Part shown: positions 37,356 to 63,993 of the stretch, in pieces
How the letters are laid out: every line of letters starts with the position of its first letter
Position numbering within the stretch: position 1 is the first letter of the stretch
NCBI GenBank assembly: GCA_030595125.1
Contig: JAUVDV010000021.1
Coordinates: 5,338-69,337 of the forward strand
Reading direction: 5' to 3'
Length of the DNA stretch: 64,000 bases
Origin: Deltaproteobacteria bacterium
GTDB taxonomy: Bacteria; Myxococcota_A; Polyangia; JAAYKL01
The notes under the pieces: model-generated
Seen by the model: the letters and a program-made list of their open reading frames with translations, nothing else
Database searches by the model: none
What the model was told of the DNA's origin: nothing
Position numbers and translations under genes: made by a program

Positions 37356-37903
37356 GACTGCCCCTCGTCTTTTGCGGACTGCTCGAGCTTATCCAGCAGC
37401 TTTTTCATCTTGTTGACGTTCATGTGACCGTGATGAATGTCGTTGACCTCCACCACCGGACCGATGGCGCAGGCTCCCACGCAGCCGACGCTCTGGAAGG
37501 TGAACTCACCGTCCACCGTGGTGTCCCCGGGTTCTATGTCCAGCTCGCGTTTGACAGTTTCGAGGATGAGCGGAGCCTGACGAACATGGCAGGCGGTTCC
37601 CATGCAAACGCGAACCAGATTGCGTCCGCGGGGCACGAGGCTCAACACGTTGTAGAAGGTGGCCACCGAGTAGACCTGTGCGGCGGGGATCTGAAGCCGG
37701 GCGGAGACCTCTTTCAGCGCGTCCGTCGGCAGGTAACCGAACTCGGTCTGTACGTCCTGGAGAATCATGACCAGGCTGGTTCGGTCGACAGGGTATCTCG
37801 AGAAAATCCGTTCGAGCATCTGGTATTCCTTGCTCTTTGAATGCCAGCCGTATGTAGGGTCGTATATCAGATCGGACGCACGCTTGTCGTGATCATTTGA
37901 CAC
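37352..37903 (-). CDS. NuoE-like (24-kDa, HndA-type) thioredoxin-like [2Fe-2S] ferredoxin
   Basis: CMGTACH...CVGACAIGPVVEV four-Cys motif; ATGA overlap with the nuoF-like start. Confidence 0.8.
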   Translation of the reverse strand: MSNDHDKRASDLIYDPTYGWHSKSKEYQMLERIFSRYPVDRTSLVMILQDVQTEFGYLPTDALKEVSARLQIPAAQVYSVATFYNVLSLVPRGRNLVRVCMGTACHVRQAPLILETVKRELDIEPGDTTVDGEFTFQSVGCVGACAIGPVVEVNDIHHGHMNVNKMKKLLDKLEQSAKDEGQS

Positions 37904-40691: not shown

Positions 40692-42341
40692 CTATTCCAG
40701 GTACCCCAGCGCCCGCAGGGCCTCCACCTCGTCTTCGTTGAGTTTTGCCCTGATGGGAGAGGGGGCGTCTTTCGCCGTTCTGGAGGCGCGTTCGGTTTTA
40801 ATTATTCTGCTGAGCATGGTCTCGACGACGGCGAATCTGTTGGGACTTTTTCCCTTCGCGAAGGTGTGACTGATCAGGTTTTTGGCCTCCAGGGGGTCCT
40901 TTTTTATGTTGTACAGCTCTTTCTTTTTTGTGCGCTCATCTCGAATGAGCTTGAAGTCGCCGTGCCGCACGGAGACGCGATTGGACTTGGCCTGGGGGCG
41001 GTAGGTCTCCGACACCGCCGGGCGCATGCCGATGTCCCCCAACGGCCACAGATTTTTGCCCCGGATGTCGGGGGGCGACCCAAAACCGAAAAAGTGGCCT
41101 ATGGTCGGAAGTAGATCGATGTGCCTCACGGGTTCCGAGATCCGCCTGCCGGCATTTGTTTTATTCGGGAGGGCAATGATCAAGGGAACGTGGACGAGGC
41201 TTTCGTAGAGACGCTGGACGTGCTCGAAAACACCGTTGCGTTCGCCGAGTTCCTCTCCGTGATCCGATGTGAGCACGACCATGGTGTTGTTCCACAGGCC
41301 CAGAGTGGTCATACGCTCGAAAAGCGCGCCGATCTGCTCGTCCACGTAGGCGGTTTCTTCCGCGTAGCCCTGTCGTTTTTGCTCCACGGAAAGCATGAAG
41401 TGACTCTTGACGCGGATGGTGTGGGTTGCGGGTTTTTGCCCGTTGGTAACTATAATGGCAGCGCTTGAACGGGCCTCGAGAATCCTGCCGTCACCAGGTT
41501 TCTTTGCCTCGCGTCCCCATTCGTCGCTGAATTTTAGCGAGAGGCTCTTTGGGAACTTCCAGCGGGACAAGTGTATCCTGTGATCTCCCTTCGACGTGAA
41601 CACCACCGTGTTTTCGCCGGGGCGAAGAGCGAGCTCGATGTGGTGGTATCTGCCGTCGATGAGAATCGGTTTGATCGGATTTTCGTTGAGGGTGATCTCC
41701 GCGTTCTGGTACCAGCTCGGCGGAACGTACGGGCCATGGGGATCGGAGTAGTGAGCGAGGAGGAAGAACGGCCTGGATGAATTGTCGTCGAGCCACGGGA
41801 GCATCTCCGCGTTCATCTCACCGGCGGTCTTCCACCAGTAATGGGGAAACTCCTCGTGTATCGTGTCGAAACCCTGGAGAACCTTGTACTTGCTCTTCAA
41901 TGCTTCGAGGCTGATGAACGCGGTGGTTGCGCAGGAGCGACCTTTGAGGATCTCCGCCAGGGTATCGTATTTCTGTCGCAGTACGTCGGCGTTGTTGTGC
42001 ACCCCGTGTTGCGACGGCAGCATTGATGTGAACATGGATGCGTGGCTCGGTCCCGTGATGGGTGCGTGGGCGTACGCCTGTTCGAACAGAACACCCCGCT
42101 TCGCGAGGGCCTCCATGTTGGGGGTCGCGGTGGGTCCGCCGTGAAGCGCGATCTGGTCCGCGCGCAGGGTGTCGACGACAATGAGGAGGAGGTTTGCGGG
42201 GCCGTTCTTGGGAGGAAGGTGGTTTTCACCGCCACCGCATGACGCAAGGGCCGAAGCGGTCAGCATTACCATGGCCGTAAGCAGCTTTGCACCGACATGT
42301 GTGCGAGCGGGACAAGAGCGTTCGTTCCGGGTAGTCATCAT
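40692..42341 (-). CDS. sulfatase-family (AP superfamily) lipoprotein, Thr-nucleophile variant
   Basis: LLLIVVDTLRADQ...HAPITGPSHASMFTS: Thr at the fGly position and His for Arg; lipobox LASC. Confidence 0.7.
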   Translation of the reverse strand: MMTTRNERSCPARTHVGAKLLTAMVMLTASALASCGGGENHLPPKNGPANLLLIVVDTLRADQIALHGGPTATPNMEALAKRGVLFEQAYAHAPITGPSHASMFTSMLPSQHGVHNNADVLRQKYDTLAEILKGRSCATTAFISLEALKSKYKVLQGFDTIHEEFPHYWWKTAGEMNAEMLPWLDDNSSRPFFLLAHYSDPHGPYVPPSWYQNAEITLNENPIKPILIDGRYHHIELALRPGENTVVFTSKGDHRIHLSRWKFPKSLSLKFSDEWGREAKKPGDGRILEARSSAAIIVTNGQKPATHTIRVKSHFMLSVEQKRQGYAEETAYVDEQIGALFERMTTLGLWNNTMVVLTSDHGEELGERNGVFEHVQRLYESLVHVPLIIALPNKTNAGRRISEPVRHIDLLPTIGHFFGFGSPPDIRGKNLWPLGDIGMRPAVSETYRPQAKSNRVSVRHGDFKLIRDERTKKKELYNIKKDPLEAKNLISHTFAKGKSPNRFAVVETMLSRIIKTERASRTAKDAPSPIRAKLNEDEVEALRALGYLE

Positions 42342-42402: not shown

Positions 42403-43479
42403 CTAGATCTCGGTGAAGGTGACGCTGAGGGCATTCACGGTGTTTGCCGCGGCCTCGCTTACCACCAGGTAGGCGTAGGAATCCGAGCTGCTAGTTCCGA
42501 GGATCTGCAGCAATTCGGGATTCTCGGCCGATTGTACGCAGGAATTGGCATTGCAGGAATCGACCTCTCGCAGGGTCACGTTGGAGGAAGTGGTCTCGGC
42601 CACACCGACTGATAATCCGGCCGGAATGCGCACCAAGAACCAGATGTCCTCGCCGCCGCCGCCATCGCCGCAGTTGGTCCCTCCCGAGAACGTTCCCGTG
42701 AAGTCGGTCCAGAGACCGCTCCATGTGAGTGGATACGTGCCCACGTAGATGATCTGCTCACATCCCTCGGACAGACAATACATGTAGTTGCTTGACGAGA
42801 CGTATCCGCAGGTGCCGCTGCAACTGAGAACTGACAGCGAACTCGTGGTGCTGTTGCACCAGATCGTCTGGCTCAGATCCTGGGTGCAGCAGCCGTAGTA
42901 CCAGGGGTTGGGAGAGATGGGCGAGAACGCCCAGGCCGCAGCGTCGCAGGCGGATGGGGGCGGTTCGGGACAGCACACGACCTCGGTCTCCACCAATGCA
43001 GTCATTTCACACTGTGACAGCGTCGTATCCGTATCTGTATCTGTATCGGTGTCCGTGCCTGTGTCCGTGCCTGTGTCCGTGTCGGTGTCTGTGTCGGTGC
43101 CTGTGTCGGTGCCTGTATCGGTTCCGGTGTCTGTTCCGGTGTCCGTGCCGGTATCTGTGCCTGTATCCGTGCCGGTGTCCGTGCCGGTATCCGTGCCGGT
43201 GTCTGTTCCGGTATCCGTGCCGGTGTCCGTGCCGGTATCCGTGCCGGTATTTGTGCCCGTGTCGGTATCGGTGTCCGTGTCGGTATCTGTATCGGTGTCC
43301 GCGTCGGTATCCGTATCGGTGTCCGTATCGGTGTCCGCGTCGGTGTCCGTGTCGCCGTCCGTATCGGTGTCTGTGTCGGTTGCTCCTGCATCCATTTTGA
43401 ACGACGGGAGCTCCCCACTACATCCGATCACCAGGAGCCAGACAAAGAAGATGGTGAAAATACGAAAAAAAGCTTTCAT
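42403..43479 (-). CDS. lipoprotein with ~130-aa (TD/TG)n linker and Cys-rich C-terminal domain
   Basis: FFVWLLVIGCSG lipobox; long TDTDTD/TGTDTG run; CCPEPPPSAC...YYGCC. Confidence 0.55.
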   Translation of the reverse strand: MKAFFRIFTIFFVWLLVIGCSGELPSFKMDAGATDTDTDTDGDTDTDADTDTDTDTDTDADTDTDTDTDTDTDTGTNTGTDTGTDTGTDTGTDTGTDTGTDTGTDTGTDTGTDTGTDTGTDTGTDTGTDTDTDTDTGTDTGTDTDTDTDTDTTLSQCEMTALVETEVVCCPEPPPSACDAAAWAFSPISPNPWYYGCCTQDLSQTIWCNSTTSSLSVLSCSGTCGYVSSSNYMYCLSEGCEQIIYVGTYPLTWSGLWTDFTGTFSGGTNCGDGGGGEDIWFLVRIPAGLSVGVAETTSSNVTLREVDSCNANSCVQSAENPELLQILGTSSSDSYAYLVVSEAAANTVNALSVTFTEI

Positions 43480-50522: not shown

Positions 50523-51737
50523 CTACGGACAATTAGCCGGAACCGGCGTGCATGTGTCGTTGCGGTTGTCGTGGATATTTATCGTATTGGGCACGTAATC
50601 GAGCTGGTCCAGCAGGTCGCACGTTTCGCAGTCGAAAAGGTTATCGTTGTGCCGGATCCAGATCTCCTTACCCACCGAGGTGATCCCGCCAAGACCATCC
50701 AGGTTGGTAATGGCGGGGCTGCTTGAAATTTCCAACGCCCAACCCACCGAGGTGATCTCGCTCAGGCCGTCAATGTCGGTCAGGGCGTAGTTGTCATCCA
50801 TCCGCAAGCTCCCGGCCACCGAGGTGATCCCGCTCAGCCCGTCAATGTTTTCGAGAACTTCGTTGAAATAGAATTCCAGGCGCCCGACCACCGAGCCGGT
50901 AATGCCGCTCAGCCCGTCAATGTTTGTGAGGGCAAAATTATACCAAATACTCATGTCTCCATCCAGCGAGCCTGTGATGTTGCTCAGGCCGTCAAGGTTG
51001 GTGAGGGCGTAGTTGCATTCAATCCACAAGCCCCCGCCTACCGAGGTGATCCCGCTCAGGCCGTCGAGGTTTGCAAGGACCGGGTTGCCGCCGTCCGGAC
51101 TCATTTCGCCGCTGCTGCCGGAAAAACAGAATCCAATTGTCAAGTTCCCACCCACTGAGGTGATGCCGCTCAGGCCGTCCAGGTTTGTGAGGGCGTCGTT
51201 GCCATCGATGCTCAGGCCCCCTCCAATCGAGCCGGTGATCCCGCTCAGGCCGTCCAGATTGGTGAGGAATCTGTTGTCGCCGATGCTCAGGCCCCCGCCC
51301 ACCGAGGTGATGCCACTCAGACCGTCCAGGCTTGTGAGGGCGTTGTTCCTTGAGATATACAAGCCGCCCACCGAGGTGATGCCACTCAGATCGTCAAGGT
51401 TTGTAAGGCCTGGGTTGCCGCCGCTATAATAACCATCAATTACCAGGCCCCCGCCCACCGAGGTGAGGCAAATCAACTCGCTCAATTCGGTGCACGAAGG
51501 GCACTCGATTGTAAGGTTTCCCGAGATCGATGTGTATCCCGCGAGGGTTGCGACATCAGAATAATTGATTATCTCAAAATCGCCGCTGTACTCTCCCAGG
51601 TTGCACTCGATCGGGCCGGTATCGGTATCGGAGTCGGAGTCAGTGTCGGTCGTCCCACTGTCTCCGATGGACGAAACGTGCGAACAGCCGGCGAAAACCA
51701 GCGCCAGGATCAACAAGAGATATTTGATATCGATCAT
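50523..51737 (-). CDS. secreted lipoprotein with ~12 leucine-rich-like 22-aa repeats (LTNLDGLSGITSVGGxLxIxxN)
   Basis: LALVFAGC lipobox; TDTDSDSDTDTG linker; periodic L..L..L.GL..I..V.G.L.I repeats (receptor-L/LRR_5-like). Confidence 0.65.
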   Translation of the reverse strand: MIDIKYLLLILALVFAGCSHVSSIGDSGTTDTDSDSDTDTGPIECNLGEYSGDFEIINYSDVATLAGYTSISGNLTIECPSCTELSELICLTSVGGGLVIDGYYSGGNPGLTNLDDLSGITSVGGLYISRNNALTSLDGLSGITSVGGGLSIGDNRFLTNLDGLSGITGSIGGGLSIDGNDALTNLDGLSGITSVGGNLTIGFCFSGSSGEMSPDGGNPVLANLDGLSGITSVGGGLWIECNYALTNLDGLSNITGSLDGDMSIWYNFALTNIDGLSGITGSVVGRLEFYFNEVLENIDGLSGITSVAGSLRMDDNYALTDIDGLSEITSVGWALEISSSPAITNLDGLGGITSVGKEIWIRHNDNLFDCETCDLLDQLDYVPNTINIHDNRNDTCTPVPANCP

Positions 51738-52060
51738 CACGGCCCGCCTCCATCTGTCGGGATGATCATATCATTTTTGGGACACAAAAAACTGATTACA
51801 CGCCGATGACGGCAAGTCCCATGGCTCGTGCGGCGCTTGCGAGCATCTTGTCGTGGGTGGCCATGGTCAGCTTGATGCCTCTAATATCGCGATAGGCGAG
51901 CGCAGTTGAAAGATGGATGGCATCCAGAGTGCCCAGGGGCGTGGGAAAAGACGACGAGGCTCTGGAGAAGAATCGAGATAGACCTTCATCGATCAGAACG
52001 TTCTTTCATGAGCGCCTGCAGGCTGCGAGGGGAGGACATCGTTCTGGTCGGAATGCGGTA

Positions 52061-54715
52061 TCAACCTGGCCACCACAGGTCAATAACGGTCTCGATCAGG
52101 CCGGGATCTTTCGAAGGCCGGTCGCCGACGGTATCGCATCCGCAGCCGTCATCGCCGCTGCCGGGGGGACTCTCGATGACGGAGATGTGCGCCAACGCTT
52201 CGGCGAAGAGGCCCGTGTCATCCCGAACCCTGGCCTTCAGGATATACTCGCCGATCTCTTCGAAGGTCACCTCTCTGTTGGAGGCGGCGGTGTAGTCGTC
52301 ATCCCAGGTGCCGTCGTAGTCGTCATCCCACTTGATCTGGAGCTGGCTCTCATCGCTGTCTTCGTCCTGGACCACAACTTCAATTACCATTGGCTTTCCT
52401 GCAAAGGCTTCCCCCGGGACCAGGCTGACGGTGGGCGCCACGCCGTCATTTGATACGCCCAGCGCGCCGGCGGCGTTCAGTCTCCCCCAGCCGTAGGCAT
52501 AGTTGGGAACATCGCCCACCATGTCGTCCACGTGCGCGCCGTCCCTGATGGCCTGCGTTGCGTCGTCGCCTACGATTCCGATCTGTGCCAGCATCGCCGT
52601 GACGCCGGTTACGTGGGGACCGGCGCCGGACGTTCCACCGAACGGAGCTACCGCGCCGTGCGGGACGACGTCACCGCCGGAGGCCTGTCCGTGGGCGGTG
52701 GCTGCCCATGGGTTGTCAGGGGCGGTGATGTCCGGCTTTTGTCGTCCGTCGATGGTCGGCCCCTGGCCGGAGTAGTAACGCACTTCACCGGGATCACCCT
52801 CCGCGTAGAACCACGGTTCTTCCGGTGTGGTGGGGTGTCCGGTATGCGCGCCGATGGCGATGCAGGTCTCCGAGGTCGCGGGCCAGCCGATGGTCCTGTC
52901 ATCTGTGGCGATGCTCTCGTCCCATGCCACGCCTACTCCCCAACTGGAAGTGTTGTCCGACAGATATGCATCGATATTCAGATCGCCAGCGCCCTGTTCG
53001 ACTGCGCTCAGCAACCAATCGCCCAGGGGGATTTCACTGGCAGAGCTATCCGCATACAAGATGACCTCATGAAAACGGGTCCCCTTCACCGTCTCCAGAT
53101 AGCTATGATAATACTGCGCGCCGCCGCTCAGCGGGCCGGTCTCCATGGTCGTTGTCAGGACGATGGGATCGCCGACGGGCGGAGTCAGGGTCAGGAGTGC
53201 GTCACCTATCCCTCGGAGGTTGATCGAGAGGTTGATGTAGTAGAGTCCTTGAAGGTTTGAAACTTCGAAGGCCGCCTGCTGCGAACCTCCCGATGGGAGT
53301 TCCATGCGCGTATGCTTGCGACCGCCGCCGGTGTTTCCGACGGGGCAGGTGTGCGTCACCCCGTCTGATACGGTGGATTCATCGACCATCACGGAGGTGA
53401 TGTCCGTTCCGTCGAGTGGCTCGCCGTACCAGTTGGCCCGCTCGTGCAGAACCACGTCGGCGCCCTCCGAGAGCACCCATGTGAGTCCCGTGCCGCCGTA
53501 TCCGGCGTCCATGTCAACTGCGAGCATGAGATCCACGCCCGGCGCCACGCCGACCCATCGCCGGCCTGCCAGGGGAACATCGCCCGCGATGATGGACATC
53601 ACTCCGGTGGCGTGCCCTGCCGCAGAGAAGACATCCGATTCGTTCAGGAAGTTGGTATCAAACTCCGCCAGATCCACACCCCGTTCGTAGACGCGATCAA
53701 TCGTCTCGTAACCGGAGTAGTTGAAGAAATGGAAAACCTTTGCGATCTTCGAGGTGCCCAGCCGCGCAACCCGCTCGCCCTTGTCGAGGATCCCGTTCGC
53801 GTTGAGATCATCGGGTACGAAGAGCGGTTCTCCCAGTGCAGGGGTTTCGTCGTCAAATCCGTTGGCTGCGCCGTAGTCGCGCTCGCCGTTGGCGTTCTCG
53901 TCAATGTAAAGCCAATCGATGGCGGGTTCAAAGCCGTCCTCCCGCGCATCGACAGGGTAACCGTATTGGAGCATGACCGTCTCCGAGCGCAGCAGCAGGC
54001 CGGTTTCGTTCAGCGCGACGCCGTCGCCGTCAAGGTCGATCGCGTCGATACCGGGGGTAAACGCCTCGTCGCCGTCCACGTCGATCCAATCGAAATACCC
54101 CGCGTCGGCGCGGAAGAACTGGGGGTGAAAGATATCGGCGTTCGTATCTATGTTCGCCACGAGGATTCCTTCTCCGGTGAGCAAGTCCATGGTCGGTTGG
54201 CTTCCCCAGGCGGCCTTCAATCCTATCAAATCCGCGCTGTGATCCATCGGAGCAGGCCCCCGTGCCGGCGCGGACACTATTTGTTGCACGTGGGATAATC
54301 GGGACAGCGCCTGCAGGGCGTCGCGGTCCACTGTCGCCGGGACGAACTGCCTGTAATGTAAAATGCCTTTAAAGCGGTCTCCATCATCTTCCCCTTCCCC
54401 TACCTCAGGGGAAGGCCGGGATGGGGTTAGTTTTCGGAGGTGCGCGCCGGCCGCCTCCAGTGAACAGAGAATTTCACTAGTGGCCGGTGTGTCCAGACGG
54501 ATCACCACCGGTACCAGGTTCGCGTAACGCACACATGCAGCTTCGTCTATGGACGGACCGTGCACCATCCGGGGCACAGCGTGCTCGATTTCGAGCAGAA
54601 CCCTCGAATCCACCTTTGTCTGGATCAGATTCTCGGCGTCGGACTGTGCCCATGCTGTGTTTGCGGCAAGTAGCAAAATGGCTGATAAAGCTAGGTTTTT
54701 GTGCATCGCTGACAA
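52061..54715 (-). CDS. subtilisin-like serine protease (peptidase S8) with I9-like propeptide and inserted TSP3-like Asp loops
   Basis: Signal peptide; Asp region VANIDTN; His region AGHATGVMSIIAG; Ser motif GTSGAGPHVTGVTAML. Confidence 0.8.
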   Translation of the reverse strand: MSAMHKNLALSAILLLAANTAWAQSDAENLIQTKVDSRVLLEIEHAVPRMVHGPSIDEAACVRYANLVPVVIRLDTPATSEILCSLEAAGAHLRKLTPSRPSPEVGEGEDDGDRFKGILHYRQFVPATVDRDALQALSRLSHVQQIVSAPARGPAPMDHSADLIGLKAAWGSQPTMDLLTGEGILVANIDTNADIFHPQFFRADAGYFDWIDVDGDEAFTPGIDAIDLDGDGVALNETGLLLRSETVMLQYGYPVDAREDGFEPAIDWLYIDENANGERDYGAANGFDDETPALGEPLFVPDDLNANGILDKGERVARLGTSKIAKVFHFFNYSGYETIDRVYERGVDLAEFDTNFLNESDVFSAAGHATGVMSIIAGDVPLAGRRWVGVAPGVDLMLAVDMDAGYGGTGLTWVLSEGADVVLHERANWYGEPLDGTDITSVMVDESTVSDGVTHTCPVGNTGGGRKHTRMELPSGGSQQAAFEVSNLQGLYYINLSINLRGIGDALLTLTPPVGDPIVLTTTMETGPLSGGAQYYHSYLETVKGTRFHEVILYADSSASEIPLGDWLLSAVEQGAGDLNIDAYLSDNTSSWGVGVAWDESIATDDRTIGWPATSETCIAIGAHTGHPTTPEEPWFYAEGDPGEVRYYSGQGPTIDGRQKPDITAPDNPWAATAHGQASGGDVVPHGAVAPFGGTSGAGPHVTGVTAMLAQIGIVGDDATQAIRDGAHVDDMVGDVPNYAYGWGRLNAAGALGVSNDGVAPTVSLVPGEAFAGKPMVIEVVVQDEDSDESQLQIKWDDDYDGTWDDDYTAASNREVTFEEIGEYILKARVRDDTGLFAEALAHISVIESPPGSGDDGCGCDTVGDRPSKDPGLIETVIDLWWPG
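54381..54430. repeat. second copy of the ~50-bp ccccttcccc/ggggaagg palindromic element, lying in-frame inside the S8 protease propeptide-linker coding region
   Basis: ccatcatcttccccttcccctacctcaggggaaggccgggatggggtt; translated in the gene frame as SRPSPEVGEGEDDGDRFKG. Confidence 0.55.
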
Positions 54716-54888
54716 CGCGTTCTGCCAATGTGGGGCGAAAATGCCCCAATGTTTGGCTTTAATTCAACATTTGCATAAACCGTTCCACGGGCATTTAGAT
54801 TCTTCGATACACTTGGTTTACCATTAGGGTTTAAAATGCTGGTATCGATGTTGGTGCGAACAATGCAATTTTGGGGAAGGTAGCAATT

Positions 54889-55707
54889 ATGAAAATACTG
54901 TTTTTGCATTTGTGTCTGGTTGTTCTCGTGACCCTGTCTGTTTCCTGCGCTAAAAGCGTGCTTGAGCCTGGATCGGGCAGCTCCGATTCCGATTCGGACA
55001 GCGATTCCGATTCTGACACCGACACCGACACCGACTCTGACTCCGACACGGACACGGATTCGGACACGGACAGCGACACGGACACCGACACCGACTCCGA
55101 TACGGACACGGACACAGACACCGACACGGATACCGACACAGACACCGATACCGATACCGACACGGGTACGGATACCGGCACCGACACCGGTACGGATACC
55201 GGCACCGACACGGGTACGGATACCGGCACGGGAACGCTGGTCTGCATAGATTTCGATGGTTCATCCGCCCCGAGCACATTCTCTTCGACAACCGCTCTGA
55301 GTACGGCTTATTCGGGCCTCGGTGTGACCTTTTCGGGGCCATCCGTCGGAAGTGGCGGGGCCATTTTGAATGAAGCAGGAGGTTTTGGCGTTTCCGGACA
55401 CAGTTCGCCAAACTTCGTGGCTTTCAATTCGGGCGCGCCTCTTTCGGGCGGAGGAATTCCCATTGGGCCCGAGACGATTCAGTTCACTACACCCGCAACT
55501 TCAGTCAGTGTCTGGGTGGCTGCCAGTAGTGGAGGTACAGTTACGATGACGGCATACAATGGTGTCGGCGGCGTTGTGGACACCGATACAGGCTCGCTTT
55601 CATCCAGCGTAACCGAGTACCAGACGGCCGGAGCAGGAATCGACCATGTTGTTCTTCAGACTACTGTTGCAGTCTGGGTTTTTGACGACCTGTGTTTTGT
55701 CAATTAG
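54889..55707 (+). CDS. lipoprotein with ~100-aa (SD/TD/TG)n linker and C-terminal beta-rich domain
   Basis: MKILFLHLCLVVLVTLSVSC lipobox; SDSDSD...TDTDTD...TGTDTG. Confidence 0.55.
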   Translation: MKILFLHLCLVVLVTLSVSCAKSVLEPGSGSSDSDSDSDSDSDTDTDTDSDSDTDTDSDTDSDTDTDTDSDTDTDTDTDTDTDTDTDTDTDTGTDTGTDTGTDTGTDTGTDTGTGTLVCIDFDGSSAPSTFSSTTALSTAYSGLGVTFSGPSVGSGGAILNEAGGFGVSGHSSPNFVAFNSGAPLSGGGIPIGPETIQFTTPATSVSVWVAASSGGTVTMTAYNGVGGVVDTDTGSLSSSVTEYQTAGAGIDHVVLQTTVAVWVFDDLCFVN

Positions 55708-56366: not shown

Positions 56367-56924
56367 ATGCTGCCCACGAAAAAGGAAATCACCATCGACG
56401 CGGACAAGTGCACCGGCTGTCACGGTTGCGAGATGGCATGCTCCATCAAGCATTTTCTGGTGTGCGGAACGCACTACTCCCGGATTCGCATCCAGGAGTT
56501 TCGCGAGGTCAACACTTTCGTCCCAATCAAGTGTCAGGCATGTGAGGACGCGGCGTGTATGGAGGTCTGTCCGATGACAGCGCGCGTTCGACAGGAGAAC
56601 GGCGCCGTGGTGACCGATCCGCTCAAGTGCATCAGTTGTCACGTGTGTATCCAGGCCTGCCCGTTCGGAGCGGTGGTCGTGAATCCCACCGACGGCAAGA
56701 CCATGAGCTGCGATCTCTGTGACGACGACCCCATGGGACCCTGGTGTGTCAAGGCGTGCACCATGCAGAAGGCGTTGCGGTTCGTGGACGCAAGGGACGC
56801 GGCCCGGGGCAGAGCCAGGGAATGGGCTTCAAAGTTGAAGGTCGAGTTCCAGCCGCCGGGATCCGCGCAGGAGGAGACGGAGTTCGAGTTTAGTTTCTGC
56901 ACGGATGGGGGGAAGGAGCAATGA
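56367..56924 (+). CDS. 4Fe-4S dicluster ferredoxin (AOR electron-transfer partner)
   Basis: CTGCHGCEMAC, CQACEDAACMEVCP, CISCHVCIQACP, CDLCDD...C motifs; stop overlaps the AOR start (ATGA). Confidence 0.75.
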   Translation: MLPTKKEITIDADKCTGCHGCEMACSIKHFLVCGTHYSRIRIQEFREVNTFVPIKCQACEDAACMEVCPMTARVRQENGAVVTDPLKCISCHVCIQACPFGAVVVNPTDGKTMSCDLCDDDPMGPWCVKACTMQKALRFVDARDAARGRAREWASKLKVEFQPPGSAQEETEFEFSFCTDGGKEQ

Positions 56925-58975
56925 TGCACGGATTTATGGGACGCAGACTCAGGCTGGATATGACCAGGCTAACATACGAGATCGAAGATCTCCCCTCCGA
57001 CTATTACCAAAAATGGATCGGTGGGCGCGGCATGAACTCGGAGGTTGTGTACAACGAGACGTGGCAGGGCATGGATCCGTACGATCCGGCCAACCCGCTG
57101 TGCTTTGTGTGCGGTGCCCTCGGAGGAACCTTCGCGCCGTTGTCGGGCAGGGTAACGGTGAGTACGCGCTCGCCCATGACATGCTCCGTCATGGGGACCG
57201 ATATTCACGGGCACGGCGACACCAACATGGGCGGTTCGTTCGGGCCAATGATGAAGTACGCCGGCTACGATCAGATCATCGTCAAGGGGCGGGCGGACAG
57301 GCCCACATGGGTAGTCGTCAACGACGACAAGGTCGAGTTCCGCAGCGCTCACGGTCTGTGGGGAATGGAGGTCAAGAAGGCCACCCTCAAGATCATGAAA
57401 GAGCTGGACGATCCGGACGTCCGCGTCTCCATTATCGGCCCCGCCGGGGAGAAGATGGTGCGATTCGCGTGCGTCATGAACTCCTTCAGCGCTTCCGGCG
57501 GAAGGACCGGGATGGGTGCGGTGATGGGGTCCAAGAATCTCAAGGCCATCGCGGTCAAGGGTTCGAAACCGGTGACCATCGCGCAGCCCGATGAGTTTAT
57601 CAAGGCGGCCTGGGCGTTGCGCGAGAAAGTTCACGTGTCGCCGTCGGCCATCCGCAGGCGTTACGAGGGGACCATGGACCTGTTCGACGCGGGCAACGAC
57701 ATCGGTATCAGCGCCCACAAGAATTGCTCCACGGGCTACATGAAGGACATCGAGAAGATATTCGGCGGGGTCCAGTGGGCCGATGAGTTCCTGTTTCGGC
57801 GCAAGGCGTGCTGGTCGTGCCCGGTGGCGTGCGGCAGGTACACCTACATAAAGGAAGGCAAGTGGGCGGGCTTCCATTGTGGTGGCCCCGAGATGGAGAG
57901 CGTATGCGCTTTCGGACCGAGAATCGACTCCACGGACGTGGCGGGGGTAAACGTGCTGTGCGGTCAGGCAAACGAGCTGGGCATGGACAGCATCTCTGCG
58001 GGCGCGGCTCTCTCGTGGACCATGGAGGCGTTTGAGAAGGGCTACATCACAGAGAAGGATACGGGTGGAATCAGGCTGGAGTGGGGGGACATCGAGACCT
58101 CCATGAAGGTGCTCGATATGATAGCCCGCAGGGAGGGTTACGGCGATCTACTGGCCGAGGGCAACATTCGCGTGGCCGAGAAGCTCGGCGTGGGCATGGA
58201 TATCGTGCCCCACTGTCGCGGTCTCGAGCATATCAGCGTCGATCCGAGGATCGCGCTGGGGTTCAGCCTGGGATACGCCATGTCCACCCGCGGATCGGAC
58301 CACCTCAAGAACTACTCCTGCCTGGAGTTTCCCGGTTGTGCCCAGAGCCGCGCGTACCAGATCGATGAGATCTTCGACGCCGACGGGGCAAAGAAGTTCT
58401 GGGACAACTTCCCTTCCCAGATGTACGAGATCGACACCAAGCCCGAGTTGTGCACCTGGTCCGAAAAGAACAAGTGCGTGTCCGATCTCGTGGGATGCTG
58501 CTGCCAGGCCATCGGATCGTGGGGAGGCGCCGGAGATTGGAAGGAGGCGTACACCCCCATGTTCCGTTACGCCACGGGTCTCGATCTGAGCGACGAGGAG
58601 ATCTTCCTGGGCGCGGAACGGGTGATCAACATCGAGCGCGCTCACTGGTGCAGGGACGGAAGCGCCCGGCAGGACGACACCCATATCGACCGCTATTTCG
58701 ACGAGGGCGTGGCGGATGGTCCGTACAAGGGGATGAAGCTCGATCGCGATGAATGGGCGTGGGCACAAACCGAGTACTACAAGTTCCACGGATGGGACAG
58801 GGACGGGTTCATCAGTCCTCAGAAGGCCACAGAACTCGGCATCGAGAACATCATTCCCGACATGGAGGTCGGCAAGAAGATCTACAACGCCTGGCTGGAC
58901 GAACACGGCCTTCGGCCCAAACCCAAACCCAAACCCAAGGCCAAACCCAAAGCCAAAAAACGTACCCGCAAGTAG
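56921..58975 (+). CDS. aldehyde:ferredoxin oxidoreductase (tungsten/molybdopterin AOR family) with Lys/Pro-rich C-terminal tail
   Basis: AOR N-terminal domain (YYQKWIGGRGMNSEVVY...GALGGTF), pterin-binding E..H and C-ligand regions, ending RPKPKPKPKAKPKAKKRTRK. Confidence 0.85.
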   Translation: MMHGFMGRRLRLDMTRLTYEIEDLPSDYYQKWIGGRGMNSEVVYNETWQGMDPYDPANPLCFVCGALGGTFAPLSGRVTVSTRSPMTCSVMGTDIHGHGDTNMGGSFGPMMKYAGYDQIIVKGRADRPTWVVVNDDKVEFRSAHGLWGMEVKKATLKIMKELDDPDVRVSIIGPAGEKMVRFACVMNSFSASGGRTGMGAVMGSKNLKAIAVKGSKPVTIAQPDEFIKAAWALREKVHVSPSAIRRRYEGTMDLFDAGNDIGISAHKNCSTGYMKDIEKIFGGVQWADEFLFRRKACWSCPVACGRYTYIKEGKWAGFHCGGPEMESVCAFGPRIDSTDVAGVNVLCGQANELGMDSISAGAALSWTMEAFEKGYITEKDTGGIRLEWGDIETSMKVLDMIARREGYGDLLAEGNIRVAEKLGVGMDIVPHCRGLEHISVDPRIALGFSLGYAMSTRGSDHLKNYSCLEFPGCAQSRAYQIDEIFDADGAKKFWDNFPSQMYEIDTKPELCTWSEKNKCVSDLVGCCCQAIGSWGGAGDWKEAYTPMFRYATGLDLSDEEIFLGAERVINIERAHWCRDGSARQDDTHIDRYFDEGVADGPYKGMKLDRDEWAWAQTEYYKFHGWDRDGFISPQKATELGIENIIPDMEVGKKIYNAWLDEHGLRPKPKPKPKAKPKAKKRTRK

Positions 58976-59094
58976 GGGCGATGCCGGCAAACATATTCCC
59001 AATTCGTGCCCCCCTGAATGTGTTAATATCGTCAAATACAAAAACAAAGATGGTGGCGACAGGAATTCGCCGCGCTTCATGGGGAGGAAATCTC

Positions 59095-62000
59095 ATGTCT
59101 TCGATTTTCCGAAACACGATGGTCCGGTTGTCCGTGCTCGGGTTGGTGTTGGCGATGGTGGGATGCGCGGACGAAGAGGATGACGGCTCCACTGGCGGCG
59201 GTGCCGTCGGGGGCAGCGCGGTAGTCGACGACCAGGCGCTCGCGGATGCGCCGGACGTGTCGGCGCCGTTCGACATCTCGGCGGTGATCCGCCAGGTGCA
59301 CTTCGCGTTTCGACCCGACGGCGACGGGTTCAAGGGTGGGCACGACACCTACTCGGTACGAGTGGATCGGAAGGGCGCGATCACGGTGACACCGTACATC
59401 GCACAGGAGAACATCGTCGCGGGTGCCCCGGCCACCTTCGAGACCGTGTCCGTGGAACGGCGCCAGGGTCGGCTCGACTTCGTCGCCGCCTCGCCGACGG
59501 GTCGACAGGACGGCGGGCTGGAGATGCCACGCGGCCCGGCGCGGGAGATGCTCAAGAACTCCGAAGAAGGCGTCGAACAGAGCTGGAGCTTCGAGAGCGA
59601 GCCGGCAGGGGACGGCGATCTGACGATACGGGTTCGCGTCACCGGCATGGATTACTCCGACCGAACCGAGCACGGACTTCATTTTCAGGACAGCGGGACC
59701 GGTCTGGGATTCAGGTACGGCAACGCGACCTGGATCGATGCCGAGGGAAACGAAACCCGTGTGATACCGGGGTATCGAAACGGTGAGGTCGTGATGTCGG
59801 TGCCGGCGGAGGTGCTCGCTGTCTCGAGCTATCCGGCAGTGCTGGATCCCGTGATCGGTCCAGAGTTCGGGATGGACCAACCGGTTTATACTCCTACGTA
59901 CTACGATCAAGACTTTCCCAAAATCGGGTCGGACGGGAGCGATTATTTCGTCGTTTGGCGGGACAACCGTGCCAACGACAGGTCGATTATAGGGACGCGA
60001 GTTACTCCGGCGGGAGTGGTTCTCGATCCGTACGGAATCGATATATCGCTGAGCACCCAAGGCCAGAATTCCCCTGCCGTCGCCTTCGGCGGAACTCACT
60101 ACCTGGTGGTCTGGAGGGATTCGCGCAATCCGAGTTATGACATCTACGGCGCCCGGGTCGATACCAACGGTGTCGTGCTCGACGAGGAAGGTATTCCGAT
60201 CTCGACGGCGCCGGGCCATCAGGACTTACCTCGTATCGCCTACGACGGCTCCAGGTTCCTGGTGGTCTGGGAAGACCAGCGAGACTACGCGACTACCCAG
60301 GATGACATCTACGGCGCCCGGGTCGATAATGCCGGTGTCGTGCTGGACACCGGCGGGATCGCCATATCGACGGACACAGACTATCAGCGGTCCCCGGCAG
60401 TCTCGTGCGGCGGGACCAGCTGCCTGGTCGTCTGGAATGACAACCGCGCCGACTCCAATTCGAGCTGGGATATCTATGGGGCCAGGGTGACCACCACTGG
60501 AACCGTCCTCGACCCCGCAGCCTTCTCCATCTGCGAGCATGTGCACGACCAAGACAGCCCAACCGTTGCGTTCGACGGGACCAACTACCTGGTGGTGTGG
60601 AGGAGAAACAGCACCGTGTATGGGGCCAGGGTGGCCCCGGACGCCAGCGTGTTGGATAGCGATGGTTTCGTCATCTCGACGCTGTCGACCGGCTATTATC
60701 CAGCCGTCGCGTTCTCAGGAGTTGTCTATCTGGTGGTCTGGGTTTGGGGCGGTGATATTCGCGGAGTCCGGGTCAGCACCGGCGGCAGCGTGCTCGACGC
60801 GGCAGATATCGTCATCTCTGCGGCGCCCAGCACCGAGCTATATCCGGAGGTCGCGTCGGCCGGAGGCGGTTTCCTGGTGGTCTGGCAAGACGACGACGGC
60901 TTCTGGCCCACCGGGCTCGACATTTTTGGAGCGCGGGTCGGCGCCGACGGCGCCGTCCTCGATCCGACGCCGATCGAGATCGCACAGGGTGCCAACGACC
61001 AGGAGAGCCATGCGGTGGCCTACGGCAGCGACATGTATCTGGTCGTCTGGAGGGACAACCGTAACTACCCGGTCACCGACGACGATATCTACGGCGTTCG
61101 CGTCGACAGCTCCGGGACCGTGCTCGATCCCACGGGAATCGCGATCTCGACTGCGGCCGACGAGCAGGACAGTCCTGCGGTGGCCTTCGACGGGGTAAAC
61201 TTCCTGGTCGTCTGGGACGACAATCGGGTCGGATACCAGGTCAAGATATACGGGACCCTGGTCGGCACTGACGGGGTCGTCGACGAGGTGGACGGCTTCT
61301 ACATTGCACACTACAGCAGCGTCTTTGATGCCGACTGTTTCAACCCTGACGTGGCGTTCGACGGAAACGTTTACCTGGCTGTCTGGCAGGTAGAGAGTGC
61401 TCTAGTGTATGGCAGGACGATCAGCACCGAAGGCGCGCTTCTCGGAGAGCATTTCCCTATCAGCGATAGCAGCGGCGACGACCAGTGCAATCCCAGGGTC
61501 GCGGCCAACGGCGCGCAGTTCCTGGTCGTCTGGGATGACGAGCGCAACTTCTCGACCAACGGCTGGGACATATACGGCGCCAGGGTGAGTTCGATCGGCG
61601 GCGTCCTCGACACCGTCCCGATTCAGATCTCGGACGTCATGAGCGATCAACTGTCACCATCGATCGCCGCCGACGGAACCAACTACATGGTCGTCTGGGA
61701 CGACAAGCGCTTCTCGGCCAACCCCGACATCTACGCCGGCAGGCTCGACACCAGCGGCAACGTTCTGGACGGTATCGGGGTCGCCATCGCGGCCACCGTC
61801 GGATCACAGACGTCGCCCACCGTCGCATTCGACGGGACGGATTTTGTCATCGCCTGGCAGGACGGACGCAACTACAATACCACCGGGTACGATATCTGGG
61901 GGGCCCGAGTCGATTCGTCGCTGACGGTCCTCGATCCGGCGGGGATCGAGCTCTCGGCGGAGAACTTCATGGAGTACCATCCCGAGCTCGCCTCCAACGG

Positions 62001-63993
62001 GGCGGGCACCTCGCTGCTCACATACAAACGCCATCTGGCGGACCTATTCAACCAACGCGTCAGGGCCAGGTTCTTCGACAACCAGAGCAACCTTCCCAAC
62101 GGCGATTCGTGCTCGGGCGACGGGATGTGCCTCAACGCCCACTGCGTCGACGGGGTCTGCTGCGACATCGAGTGCGGGGGCAACGATTTCACCGACTGCC
62201 AGGCGTGTTCGATCGCGACTGGAGCGGCGGTCGACGGCGTCTGCGCCACCCTGGCGATCACGCACGAATGCCGTCCCTCCACCGGAGACTGCGATGTAGC
62301 AGACTATTGCGACGGGACGAACACGGACTGCCCGGCCGATGCGATCCTGGAAAGCGGAGAGAGTTGCGACGATAGCGACGATTGCACCCACACCGACGGC
62401 TGCCAGTCCGGGGGCGTCTGCCAGGGGACGGCGTACACCTGCACCTCCGAGGATTGCCTGGCGCGCGCCTGCGATGGTGTCGGTGGCTGCAACGATACGC
62501 CGCTACCCGATACCACTATTTGCGGCACCGCGGCCTGCACGGCGGATTACTGCGTCGGTTTGACGTGGCATGATTATGGCGCCACCTGCGACCTGTACTG
62601 CGACGGGTTCGGAGCATGCGAATCCACCTGCACCTGCACGCCTGCAGACACGGTCTGTGACGTGGGATCGAGCAACGAGTGTTGCGCTGCCCAGTGCGAC
62701 GACGTGGCCGGCTGCTCGACAACGGCCGGGGCATGCGCCGACACCTGCGGCACCACGCTGCTCGCGGTCGGACGCACCTGCGCGGGGTGCGGCGCCAATA
62801 ACGCCGACGGCACGTGCGGCGGCGGCACGGCGTACGACTGCAACGGTACCGTTCACTCTCTGTGTCAGGAGATCTCGTGCGGCGGCACGACCTACTACTG
62901 CACCGAGGTGGGGAGCGTCTGGCAGTGGCGCACGGCAACAGCGTGCGACGACGGCGACGATTGCACGTTCACCGATATCTGCAGCGCAAGCGCCTGTAGC
63001 GGCACCGCGTACACCTGCACCTCCGAGGACTGCCTGACGCGGACCTGCGATGGCGTCGGCGGCTGCAACGTGACGCCGCTACCCGATACCACCATCTGCG
63101 GCACTGCGGCCTGTACGGCGGATTACTGCGTCGGTTTGACGTGGCACGACTATGGCGCCACCTGCGACCTGTACTGCGATGGGTTCGGCACATGCGAATC
63201 CACCTGTACCTGCACACCGGCAGACACGATCTGCGACGTGGGATCGAGCAACGAATGTTGCACGGCCCAGTGCGACGACGTGGCCGGTTGTTCGACAGCG
63301 GCCGGGGCCTGCGCTGACACCTGCGACCCCGCGCAGCTCTCGGTCGGAAGCACCTGCGCGGGGTGCGGCGCCAACAACGCCGACGGCACCTGCGGCAGCG
63401 GCGCGGTGCTGGAGTGCAGCGGAACAACCCACACCGAGTGCGAGTCGGCATCGTGTGACTCCACGACCTACTACTGCACCAACCTTGTATCCACCTGGGA
63501 GTGGCGCGATGCGCCGGACTGTGACGATGGCGATCCGTTTACCTACGACGACGTCTGCGGCGACGGAGGTGTCTGCGCGGGTGAGGTGGACGCCGGGACG
63601 GACACAGACACGGACACGGACACAGACACGGATACAGACACCGATACAGATACGGACACTGACACCGACACAGACACCGATTCCGACACAGATACCGATT
63701 CCGATACGGACACCGATTCCGATACAGATTCCGACGGCTGCACCAATGGCGCCACCCGGTGCGCCGAGGACATCGTCCAGCATTGTGAGAACGGAACCTG
63801 GAACGACTGGAGCGACTGCGTCGTCCAGGGGATGACCTGTGTCATGATCGATGGTGTGGCCCAGTGTGTAGGCGACGACGGCAGCGGCAAGGACTCGGAC
63901 TCCTGCGGATGCCGTGCGATCGGTGGTGGTTCTTGGGAAGGCAAGAGCTTCAACCTGATTACCTTACTGCTGCTGGTGTTGTTAGGAAACTGA
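59095..63993 (+). CDS. giant (1632-aa) secreted lipoprotein: >=13 copies of a ~47-aa DIYGARVD...VLD...PAVAFDG.NYLVVW repeat, two tandem ~195-aa Cys-rich modules, TD linker, MYXO-CTERM-like tail
   Basis: MSSIFRNTMVRLSVLGLVLAMVGC lipobox with SD ggagg upstream; periodic repeat; Cys-rich CDDxDDCT.TD.C...TAYTCTSEDC modules; C-terminal ...CGCRAIGGGSWEGKSFNLITLLLLVLLGN. Confidence 0.7.
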   Translation: MSSIFRNTMVRLSVLGLVLAMVGCADEEDDGSTGGGAVGGSAVVDDQALADAPDVSAPFDISAVIRQVHFAFRPDGDGFKGGHDTYSVRVDRKGAITVTPYIAQENIVAGAPATFETVSVERRQGRLDFVAASPTGRQDGGLEMPRGPAREMLKNSEEGVEQSWSFESEPAGDGDLTIRVRVTGMDYSDRTEHGLHFQDSGTGLGFRYGNATWIDAEGNETRVIPGYRNGEVVMSVPAEVLAVSSYPAVLDPVIGPEFGMDQPVYTPTYYDQDFPKIGSDGSDYFVVWRDNRANDRSIIGTRVTPAGVVLDPYGIDISLSTQGQNSPAVAFGGTHYLVVWRDSRNPSYDIYGARVDTNGVVLDEEGIPISTAPGHQDLPRIAYDGSRFLVVWEDQRDYATTQDDIYGARVDNAGVVLDTGGIAISTDTDYQRSPAVSCGGTSCLVVWNDNRADSNSSWDIYGARVTTTGTVLDPAAFSICEHVHDQDSPTVAFDGTNYLVVWRRNSTVYGARVAPDASVLDSDGFVISTLSTGYYPAVAFSGVVYLVVWVWGGDIRGVRVSTGGSVLDAADIVISAAPSTELYPEVASAGGGFLVVWQDDDGFWPTGLDIFGARVGADGAVLDPTPIEIAQGANDQESHAVAYGSDMYLVVWRDNRNYPVTDDDIYGVRVDSSGTVLDPTGIAISTAADEQDSPAVAFDGVNFLVVWDDNRVGYQVKIYGTLVGTDGVVDEVDGFYIAHYSSVFDADCFNPDVAFDGNVYLAVWQVESALVYGRTISTEGALLGEHFPISDSSGDDQCNPRVAANGAQFLVVWDDERNFSTNGWDIYGARVSSIGGVLDTVPIQISDVMSDQLSPSIAADGTNYMVVWDDKRFSANPDIYAGRLDTSGNVLDGIGVAIAATVGSQTSPTVAFDGTDFVIAWQDGRNYNTTGYDIWGARVDSSLTVLDPAGIELSAENFMEYHPELASNGAGTSLLTYKRHLADLFNQRVRARFFDNQSNLPNGDSCSGDGMCLNAHCVDGVCCDIECGGNDFTDCQACSIATGAAVDGVCATLAITHECRPSTGDCDVADYCDGTNTDCPADAILESGESCDDSDDCTHTDGCQSGGVCQGTAYTCTSEDCLARACDGVGGCNDTPLPDTTICGTAACTADYCVGLTWHDYGATCDLYCDGFGACESTCTCTPADTVCDVGSSNECCAAQCDDVAGCSTTAGACADTCGTTLLAVGRTCAGCGANNADGTCGGGTAYDCNGTVHSLCQEISCGGTTYYCTEVGSVWQWRTATACDDGDDCTFTDICSASACSGTAYTCTSEDCLTRTCDGVGGCNVTPLPDTTICGTAACTADYCVGLTWHDYGATCDLYCDGFGTCESTCTCTPADTICDVGSSNECCTAQCDDVAGCSTAAGACADTCDPAQLSVGSTCAGCGANNADGTCGSGAVLECSGTTHTECESASCDSTTYYCTNLVSTWEWRDAPDCDDGDPFTYDDVCGDGGVCAGEVDAGTDTDTDTDTDTDTDTDTDTDTDTDTDTDSDTDTDSDTDTDSDTDSDGCTNGATRCAEDIVQHCENGTWNDWSDCVVQGMTCVMIDGVAQCVGDDGSGKDSDSCGCRAIGGGSWEGKSFNLITLLLLVLLGN

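Follow-up and report, generated by a model that had tools for sequence, protein, structure and literature searches.

How could a giant secreted lipoprotein be held at the cell surface by a tail that resembles the MYXO-CTERM sorting signal of myxobacteria and lacks its Arg-rich cluster? The question is raised by the gene at 59095..63993 (+) of a 64,000-nucleotide stretch of DNA from a Deltaproteobacteria bacterium (contig JAUVDV010000021.1), which was analyzed as a whole and is called the window here. The gene encodes a product of 1632 amino acids (aa) with a propeller head, a Cys-rich stalk, an acidic spacer, a small 6-Cys domain and a short C-terminal tag with the motif SCGC. We consider it fairly probable that this is a surface propeller protein that carries a truncated variant of MYXO-CTERM as its anchoring or sorting tag. 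The whole protein is a new combination of domains that are themselves known unknowns. No orthologue of the full protein was found in genome and metagenome contigs, only distant propeller relatives with 29-41% identity. Exact look-ups in an assembly index, with the protein from either of two alternative starts and with the product of the upstream aldehyde:ferredoxin oxidoreductase gene, gave no match, and neither did an exact 45-mer in the GTDB representative genomes.

The C-terminal tag and its relatives

The open frame spans 58753..63993 (+), and the start was placed at the ATG at 59095 because it is preceded by GGAGGA and lies past the stop of the upstream aldehyde:ferredoxin oxidoreductase (AOR) gene at 58975. 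The TGA stop at 63991-63993 lies 7 nucleotides (nt) short of the window end. The gene, with a GC content of 63% (79% at third codon positions), is real and intact. Its product begins with MSSIFRNTMVRLSVLGLVLAMVGC/ADEE, which fits a lipobox. A signal peptide with the lipobox MSSIFRNTMVRLSVLGLVLAMVG/C24 (59095..59166, +), with the ribosome-binding site GGAGGA just upstream, was read from the sequence: R6 and R11 are followed by LSVLGLVLAMVG-C24, which by eye agrees with the PROSITE PS51257-type pattern of signal peptidase II substrates. Comparable lipoboxes, such as LLSGC, AAAC and VSSGC, are common among homologues. The preliminary description, made before this analysis, had likewise called the protein a lipoprotein.

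MYXO-CTERM has three defining parts (doi 10.1101/2023.06.07.544157; PMC11980579): a signature, often GCGC, that contains an invariant Cys; a transmembrane (TM) helix free of charge and Pro; and a cluster rich in Arg. The tag of the window protein comprises the last 30 residues (63901..63993, +, by translation), in which SCGC (aa 1603-1606) is followed by 26 residues, RAIGGGSWEGKSF and NLITLLLLVLLGN, and the stop. The letters of the tail quoted in the preliminary description are exactly those that we read. The tag thus lies at the extreme C-terminus and contains a signature with the invariant Cys. Between the 6-Cys domain and SCGC lies the acidic, Gly-containing linker GDDGSGKDSDS, and SCGC leads into RAIGGG, comparable to canonical tails with GCGCRTVGEG. 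The hydrophobic stretch NLITLLLLVLLG is uncharged and about 12 residues long. None of the other sorting signals searched for on the tail (PEP-CTERM, GlyGly-CTERM, JDVT, Synerg, CGP, LPXTG and the type IX secretion system (T9SS) signal) gave an NCBIfam match at E ≤ 10.

Ahead of the tag lie an acidic (TD/SD)n low-complexity spacer (63589..63738, +) and a 44-aa mini-domain with six Cys, CTNGATRCAEDIVQHCENGTWNDWSDCVVQGMTCVMIDGVAQCV (63739..63870, +; phmmer). The spacer, a feature beyond those described before, corresponds in the DNA to an imperfect tandem repeat with hexamer and 36-nt units (GACACC/GATACA and the like; TRF places a tandem repeat at 63598-63735). This tract is likely prone to slippage, and its length may vary between strains. 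Its NCBIfam matches were confined to the SD-repeat regions of MSCRAMMs, with 16-25 bits against cut-offs of 999-2500. The mini-domain has the pattern C.DG.TRC....VQHC..G.W.DW.DC..QG..C....G.AQC and matches no Pfam or NCBIfam model. The last 87 aa yielded no relatives in a word-indexed homology search, and an exhaustive phmmer search was needed. Run against 1.84 billion representatives, it found the mini-domain in at least 81 proteins at E ≤ 1e-3 (P0220-P0300), mostly right behind the lipoprotein signal, in a few cases just ahead of a GCGC tail, and sometimes in 4-9 copies.

Six of the 81 phmmer matches have the complete cassette, in which the (TD)n spacer and the mini-domain precede the Cys-motif tail. 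P0226 (1666 aa), which has the overall architecture of the window protein, ends in SCGCSHVGAGRSGLLALLLGYLFQ; P0245 (1798 aa), with the cluster mate MFO8070518.1 from a Polyangia metagenome-assembled genome (MAG), ends in GCGCRSVGETGRGGPLGLLLEAIF; and the beta-helix/PKD protein P0262 (MBN2717650.1) ends in GCGCNLHGSPTAGGPFPNLLTLLFD. P0227, with 152 aa essentially the cassette alone, ends in GCGCAAVGNSTNATGFTLLKLIFALLGIR, and P0269 (439 aa), with an SCDC motif, in SCDCQTAGRASTTGLLLRIL. P0232 (132 aa) has a single Cys (GFGC) and then 21 residues ending in LSALLLDALV. In these sister tails (P0226, P0245/P0302, P0262, P0227, P0232 and P0269) the Cys motif is followed by 16-25 residues with a hydrophobic run of 3-12 residues, and some of them carry E, D or K. 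An Arg cluster was found in none of the six cassette proteins. P0226, P0227 and P0245 gave partial matches of 7.8-13.4 bits, below threshold, to the MYXO-CTERM model TIGR03901, covering positions 1-23 of 34, which correspond to the signature and the first part of the helix. Four of the sister-tail genes have genuine stops inside their contigs, those of P0245, P0262 and P0269 well within them, and downstream of P0245 neither a TM segment nor RRR is encoded in any frame. For both the window gene and its closest look-alike P0226 (L006 12529-12540), the available sequence stops no more than about 10 nt past the gene; perhaps assemblies tend to break just downstream of such repeat-rich genes.

A second tagged protein is encoded within the 64-kb window, 4.4 kb from the giant gene. 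It is a secreted S8 subtilase (52061..54700, -; Pfam Peptidase_S8, open reading frame (ORF) scan and translation) with a signal peptide ending NTAWA/Q and the C-terminus GSGDDGCGCDTVGDRPSKDPGLIETVIDLWWPG, in which DDGCGC is followed by 24 residues without an Arg cluster. The tail of the window protein is hence not unique: at least seven other proteins, one of them within the window, have a similar one. When all window ORFs were scanned for hydrophobic tails, the only matches were an ABC permease and a small membrane protein, neither of which is related.

Tails that are shorter still occur on homologues of the propeller head. P0016 ends in CCGC, P0113 in GGGCGC, P0107 in GCGCL and P0095 in DGCGCSLLF, and all four come from complete, contig-internal genes. 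The genes with minimal tails, from the propeller family and including one S8 protease, lie at L009 3001-7185, L010 2045-6424, L013 44-4459, and L012 2877-5435 and 6001-10050. On L012, the contig of P0095, the adjacent S8 protease ends in DDGCGCSLVF, and the pair shares the ending DGCGCSL[VL]F. An orthology test of the S8 proteases encoded in the window and on L012 was negative. The minimal, CaaX/CXC-like C-termini on these exported proteins are always preceded by an acidic linker. When 66 CxC-tailed proteins were sorted by the length of the segment after CxC, the canonical class had 24-44 residues, at least three of them basic in all but two odd cases; the short class, into which the window protein falls, had 16-26 residues with 0-2 basic ones; and the minimal class had 0-4 residues.

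Several observations weigh against a truncated but working MYXO-CTERM signal. With ~12 residues, the hydrophobic run is not long enough to cross a membrane as a helix, and the tail lacks an Arg-rich cluster: it ends in VLLGN, and its last 12 residues contain no basic residue, compared with 3-7 in canonical homologues. The hidden Markov model (HMM) TIGR03901.2 did not match the 40- or the 87-residue tail even at E ≤ 10 (cut-off 20 bits), with the tails of P0178 and P0065 scoring 32.8 and 22.4 bits as positive controls. Some sister tails carry charged residues (LGLLLEAIF, LIETVIDLWW), unlike published MYXO-CTERM TM segments. The window ends 7 nt past the stop, so that a sequencing frameshift at the 3' end is possible, with an alternative frame reading VVRKLTR. 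The N-terminal lipobox means that a second anchor is not strictly needed, the count of two tagged proteins for the genome comes from 64 kb only, and ligand binding by the propeller head is putative. No CPBP/myxosortase (NF040914), Lgt-like or type II secretion system gene was found among the ~45 window ORFs (Pfam/NCBIfam), nor was an exosortase or a rhombosortase among those scanned; the window ORFs scanned thus did not yield the cognate sortase that the preliminary description had envisaged. Likewise, no sorting enzyme lies beside the tagged genes in L006, L007, L009 and L012. The earlier proposal of a MYXO-CTERM-like tail therefore holds for the SCGC signature, the Gly-rich spacer and the sub-threshold TIGR03901 matches of the sister tails, whereas the tail itself fails the MYXO-CTERM HMM. 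Judged from its sequence, it is best described as a sorting signal of a familiar type in a version that is new.

A more tentative suggestion is that GCGC C-termini without the TM helix and the Arg cluster represent an undescribed CaaX-like minimal signal for lipidation and sorting of exported proteins in uncultured Myxococcota-related bacteria. Such a signal would span the series from bare GCGC ends over GCGCSL[LV]F ends to the tails of 16-26 residues. In the literature searched, no description of a graded tag series down to a bare C-terminal GCGC was found. If the suggestion were true, CxC alone would be the essential determinant of MYXO-CTERM-type anchoring, and the TM and RRR parts would be dispensable or replaced.

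It is unlikely that the tail is a decayed or truncated MYXO-CTERM that has lost its function through a 3' frameshift or mutation, leaving the N-terminal lipid anchor as the only one in use. The missing TIGR03901 score, the alternative 3' frame VVRKLTR, which would restore basic residues, and the position of the stop 7 nt from the window end, with the look-alike P0226 likewise at a contig end, all speak for such a loss. However, the same truncated design is found in independent genes on contigs with GC contents of 0.49-0.69. Several of these short-tag genes are contig-internal and have clean stops with no downstream TM or RRR in any frame, and a second, unrelated protein of the window bears a short tag. 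Given this recurrence in independent genes, it is improbable that decay led independently to one form time and again.

Acidic linkers are also found near the N-termini of other lipoproteins. Four more predicted lipoproteins of the window (38058-40478, +; 42403-43479, -; 50523-51740, -; 54871-55707, +) have a lipobox Cys and, no more than about 10-20 residues behind it, a linker of the (TD)n, (SD)n or (GD)n type. The same combination is N-terminal in P0121, P0123, P0128 and P0129, which are homologues of the Cys-rich modules described below. The end of the giant protein, with (TD)n, mini-domain and tag, mirrors the arrangement at the N-termini of at least four other window lipoproteins, where (TD)n adjoins a putatively lipidated Cys, and lipobox Cys plus acidic linker looks like a hallmark of the lineage.

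The propeller head and the Cys-rich stalk

The head consists of a conserved N-terminal all-beta domain (aa ~57-258, APFDISAVIRQVHFAFRP...VLDPVIGPEF; 59263..59868, +; conserved in 59 aligned homologues and modeled by AlphaFold) and 14 predicted four-stranded beta-propeller blades (aa ~271-994; 59905..62076, +; repeat register, AlphaFold and Foldseek). In the N-terminal domain, AlphaFold predicts beta strands with a pLDDT of mostly 80-96. By DNA and protein scans, the repeat has 14 units, whose [YF]LVVW-type anchors lie at aa 284, 336, 388, 443, 498, 545, 593, 648, 703, 760, 809, 864, 917 and about 972. The units are spaced 47-57 aa apart, most commonly 55. At least 13 copies of a ~47-aa repeat had been described; the count is 14, and 47 aa is the length of the conserved core without the variable loop only. 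The blade consensus of the window protein is DIYGARVxxxGxVLDxxGIxISxxxxxQxxPAVAxDGxNYLVVWxDxR, and that of the family, from 60 homologues, is DIYGARVSxxGxVLDxxGIxISTAxxxQxxPAVAxDGTNYLVVWxDxR.

With aa 1-1010 as the query, more than 3,355 significant proteins were retrieved, which are 37-46% identical over most of their length. The repeat had been described as novel, and this number of homologues shows that it is not. They cover 70-98% of the first 1010 residues of the query, are nearly all labelled hypothetical, and come from Archangium, Stigmatella, Melittangium, Cystobacter, Anaeromyxobacter MAGs, candidate division TA06, Verrucomicrobia and many metagenomes. Both the N-terminal domain and the 14 repeats are retained in the alignment of 60 homologues. 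As stated before, the repeat cannot be assigned to a known family, since nothing in Pfam or NCBIfam scored above threshold. The best scores were 20.7 bits for DUF3659 (cut-off 24.8) and 16.1 bits for beta_prop_Msarc (cut-off 85), and these two and the other named propeller families tested (WD40, Kelch, YWTD/LDL-B, NHL, PD40/TolB, SBBP and FG-GAP) all stayed below their curated cut-offs. PF27743 appears in the precomputed matches of homologues and is absent from the Pfam scan of the window protein. A sequence search of the PDB gave no relative of the propeller.

From the 60-homologue alignment, AlphaFold2 modeled an all-beta structure with confidence (pLDDT 87, pTM 0.74), and each repeat in it has four strands. 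Foldseek against the PDB returned 745 matches at E ≤ 1e-3, and the best 50 of the 745 were beta-propeller proteins, with a probability of 1.0. The best superpositions were with tandem propellers, namely Utp21 (4nsx, TMt 0.48), the GH74 protein 6p2k (TMt 0.52) and WD proteins of the SSU processome; LRP6 and TolB are also among the matches listed, and identity is about 10%. The model and these matches bear out the earlier guess of a beta-propeller. The idea of a new fold for the repeat was dropped in view of AlphaFold and Foldseek. As modeled, the repeat is a propeller blade of an unnamed and very large family, and the blade count and the best structural matches suggest that the 14 blades are likely arranged as two seven-bladed propellers (7+7).

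The C-termini of the 120 best homologues are of three types. Some carry a T9SS Por_Secre_tail (GVYFxRL...K.LLLK), others a canonical MYXO-CTERM (GCGC or GCSC, hydrophobic helix, RRRR), and others end directly after the last blade. Going by these sequences, such a mix of tails would be the pattern expected of cargo put on display at the cell surface by whichever system the host possesses.

An enzymatic role of the head as a glycoside hydrolase or lyase, as in GH74 and GH43 propellers, instead of a binding or adhesion module, appears quite improbable. The GH74 double propeller 6p2k (TMt 0.52) is among the best structural matches, some homologues have faint precomputed GH43 matches, and sulfatases and secreted hydrolases are plentiful in the window. 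Nevertheless, identity to any enzyme propeller is ~10%, no Pfam enzyme family scored above threshold, and the conserved W, D, R, Q, P and G are identical in every blade, which points to structural rather than catalytic roles.

Behind the head, the stalk begins with a disintegrin-like segment with 13 Cys, CVDGVCC...CQACS...GDCDVADYCDGTNTDCPAD (aa 1002-1090; 62098..62364, +), which was delimited by comparison of homologues and is also present in many homologues with longer C-termini. Its homologue profile gave a weak match to the disintegrin/Cys-rich domains of ADAM22 and snake venoms (E 2e-4), and PF00200 (disintegrin) did not match the window protein at E ≤ 1. The segment is followed by two copies of a 192-aa module with 30 Cys each, at 62365..62940 (+; aa 1092-1282 by hmmsearch with a module profile) and 62941..63516 (+; self-comparison and module profile). 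The start of a third module follows (~24 residues, DCDDGDPFTYDDVCGDGGVCAGE; 63517..63588, +), and the unit alignment runs 10 codons past copy 2. P0226 has this ending as well.

The module region has 99 homologues, all unannotated and mostly from MAGs of Myxococcota or 'Deltaproteobacteria' and from metagenomes. Each contains 1-3 tandem modules with a period of 190-196 aa. Modules within one homologue are 32-59% identical and have positional counterparts in other proteins, and the two modules of the window protein are 78% identical to each other and at most 59% to those of any other protein. This comparison indicates that the tandem array is a family trait and that the copy pair of the window protein is lineage-specific and moderately old. 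None of the 120 best propeller homologues contains the module. AlphaFold models of the modules show stacked short beta-hairpins (pLDDT >90). No sequence match was found in the PDB, and a fold search gave nothing significant, the best match being the Cys-rich region of the Entamoeba Gal/GalNAc lectin (E 9e-3, probability 0.15).

Many module homologues (P0125, P0127, P0138, P0139, P0143, P0146, P0151 and P0157) finish in a folded domain of the pattern DGW..VV.DGSS.FDDEG.Y.L...L.C, and C-x(3,4)-C-[GES]-C-(P) forms the very end of this domain. One could imagine that the C-terminal CxC of the window protein is a structural disulfide or metal site and that its hydrophobic end is a plain peptide for membrane or protein interaction, especially as the protein is extremely Cys-rich and many proteins of the module family, such as P0125, P0138 and P0151, end in C.{3,4}CxC(P) within that folded domain. 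We regard this as distinctly improbable. CGC is kept apart from the 6-Cys domain by the linker GDDGSGKDSDS and is followed by R-x-[VI]-G-x-G, as in the canonical tails GCGCRTVGEGEG (P0065) and GCGCRVAGEPGG (P0069), and the tag is found on proteins whose last domains are unrelated (an S8 protease, a beta-helix protein and a 152-aa mini-protein).

In a self-comparison of the gene, one strong diagonal with an offset of 576 nt, or 192 aa, was seen, and the internal tandem duplication previously noted is thereby confirmed, with modules at about 62365-62940 and 62941-63516. It had been called ~95% identical and very recent, which is not the case: over the whole unit the copies share 80% of their nt and 76% of their aa. 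Their core (62422-62841 versus 62998-63417) is 88% identical in nt and 86% in aa, with nonsynonymous (dN) and synonymous (dS) divergences of 0.05-0.07 and 0.33-0.41 (dS about 0.35). The last 42 codons (62842-62967 versus 63418-63543) share 61% of nt and 55% of aa, with a dN of 0.42 and a dS of 1.39. This abrupt drop from core to end suggests partial gene conversion or a duplication unit that is shorter than the module. Judging from the sequence divergence, the duplicated core would be kept by purifying selection or homogenized by conversion.

That the duplication is an assembly artefact (a mis-joined repeat or strain chimera) or a recent gene conversion is highly improbable as an alternative: the mosaic identity (88% of nt in the core, 61% in the last 42 codons; dS 0.33-0.41 versus 1.39) would fit partial conversion or a chimera, but the reading frame and all 30 Cys are intact in both copies, and homologues regularly have 2-3 tandem modules with the same 190-196-aa period. 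The doubt raised earlier about a collapsed or expanded assembly repeat is removed by the divergence between the copies, which differ at 12-39% of positions (at least 12%) and thus do not involve identical repeats. An artefact is unlikely to lie behind the duplication, and a gene conversion of the core is possible and compatible with a lineage-specific tandem duplication as the main explanation. The duplication is thus ordinary evolution of a domain array.

The composition of the stalk differs among the closest architectural relatives. It contains one disintegrin-like unit and two 192-aa modules in the window protein, at least four disintegrin-like units and one 192-aa module in P0226, and at least 10 disintegrin-like units and no 192-aa module in P0245. 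The stalk is therefore the plastic part of the protein.

Genes in the rest of the window

The DNA of the window is chromosomal and stems from an anaerobe-type organism. It contains AOR and ferredoxin genes, genes for NuoF/MvhD-like iron-sulfur flavoproteins, radical-SAM enzymes, sulfatases with a formylglycine-generating enzyme (FGE)-type maturase, and several secreted proteins, and the nearest labelled relatives are MAGs of Polyangia or 'Deltaproteobacteria'. Scans for Rfam families and tRNAs found nothing in the window. The AOR and ferredoxin genes at 56367-58975 fit an anaerobic lifestyle. So does a gene set at 31730-37903 (-), comprising a NuoF-like (Complex1_51K) gene, a 2Fe-2S thioredoxin-like gene, an MvhD/FlpD-containing polyferredoxin gene and a Fer2/pyridine-nucleotide oxidoreductase gene, which resembles electron-bifurcating or -confurcating complexes.

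Two lipoprotein-type sulfatases and a protein with an FGE-sulfatase domain are encoded at 25932-27461 (+), 29585-31384 (-) and 40692-42341 (-), which suggests that the organism degrades sulfated polysaccharides. A lipoprotein with FG-GAP repeats (7986-9971, +) lies within the sole low-GC stretch (8001-10000, GC 0.50 compared with about 0.59) and adjoins the gene for a secreted WD40 propeller protein (10387-11739); the dip in GC may mark horizontally acquired DNA.

Proposed mechanism and comparison with known systems

We propose that the protein would be exported via Sec by means of its N-terminal Sec/lipoprotein signal peptide. The head, made of the conserved beta domain and 14 blades that probably form two seven-bladed propellers, would likely bind a ligand and could serve in adhesion. 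A rigid disulfide-rich stalk, with one disintegrin-like unit and two 192-aa modules, would hold the head off the membrane; its length may evolve by duplication of Cys-rich units, and the second module probably stems from a lineage-specific tandem duplication that later diverged under purifying selection. The (TD)n spacer, the mini-domain and the GCGC tag would form the membrane-proximal end, with the tag as a putative shortened version of the MYXO-CTERM signal known from myxobacteria. By analogy with the processing model for MYXO-CTERM (PMC11980579; doi 10.1101/2023.06.07.544157), the tag Cys may be lipid-modified and the short hydrophobic C-terminal peptide cut off by a CPBP/Rce1-type protease, which would leave the protein displayed on the outer surface and tethered via its C-terminus.

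MYXO-CTERM is a surface-sorting signal with experimental support for which no lipid-transferring enzyme is known to date, and only the canonical three-part tag has so far served to define its minimal determinants. A natural series that keeps GCGC while shedding the Arg cluster, the helix and then everything after the Cys offers a handle on the parts that are needed and points to lineages in which the processing machinery may differ. In addition, two common and unnamed building blocks of surface proteins, the 14-blade propeller (over 3,000 homologues) and the 30-Cys module of 192 aa, are worth family models, and the protein illustrates how stalk length evolves via tandem duplication of Cys-rich units.

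Among known systems, tandem propellers such as the WD40 protein Utp21 (4nsx), the GH74 xyloglucanase 6p2k, LRP6 with its YWTD repeats and TolB share four-stranded blades in tandem with the modeled head. Unlike these proteins of known structure, the head has a different blade motif, ~10% identity and no match to the WD40, YWTD, Kelch, NHL or PD40 HMMs. The segment at aa 1002-1090 and the module starts CDDGDxCTxxDxC resemble motifs of the ADAM disintegrin/Cys-rich domains and of bacterial Cys repeats like the 'slime-mould repeat' (Dicty_CTDC), whereas the 192-aa module has no PDB sequence match or significant fold match. With the MSCRAMM adhesins of the Sdr/Clf type, the TD/SD tract alone matches, and the test for the full-length design (A domain plus LPXTG) failed. 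The same N-terminal domain and 14 repeats define an uncharacterized family of lipoprotein double propellers, annotated as 'hypothetical' or 'TolB family protein' in Archangium, Stigmatella, Melittangium and Cystobacter, with T9SS-tailed versions in TA06 and other FCB-type lineages. Unlike the window protein, the 120 best double-propeller homologues lack the 192-aa module, and their tails are T9SS, canonical MYXO-CTERM or none.

Eukaryotic CaaX and CXC boxes direct C-terminal lipidation and are processed by Rce1, and the comparison with them is one of analogy only. In both cases, a Cys near the C-terminus is followed by a few mostly aliphatic residues, as in the relatives ending in GCGC, GCGCL and GCGCSL[LV]F, and the myxosortases belong to the same superfamily as the CaaX-processing Rce1. 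In contrast to CaaX proteins, the bacterial proteins are exported, so that the putative modification would take place outside the cytoplasm.

The closest system for the tag is MYXO-CTERM (TIGR03901) with its myxosortases MrtX, MrtC and MrtP, which are CPBP/Rce1-like intramembrane proteases. The short tags differ from it in that they lack the Arg-rich cluster, have an HMM score that is below cut-off or absent, and contain a hydrophobic run of ~12 residues (3-12 in the sister tails, some of which are charged) instead of about 15-20. Like MYXO-CTERM, however, they lie at the extreme C-terminus of a secreted protein behind a disordered acidic or Gly-containing linker, and they show the same succession of [GS]CGC, R-x-[VI]-G, a Gly-rich stretch and Leu-rich hydrophobic residues, while close homologues in the same propeller family carry the canonical signal itself.

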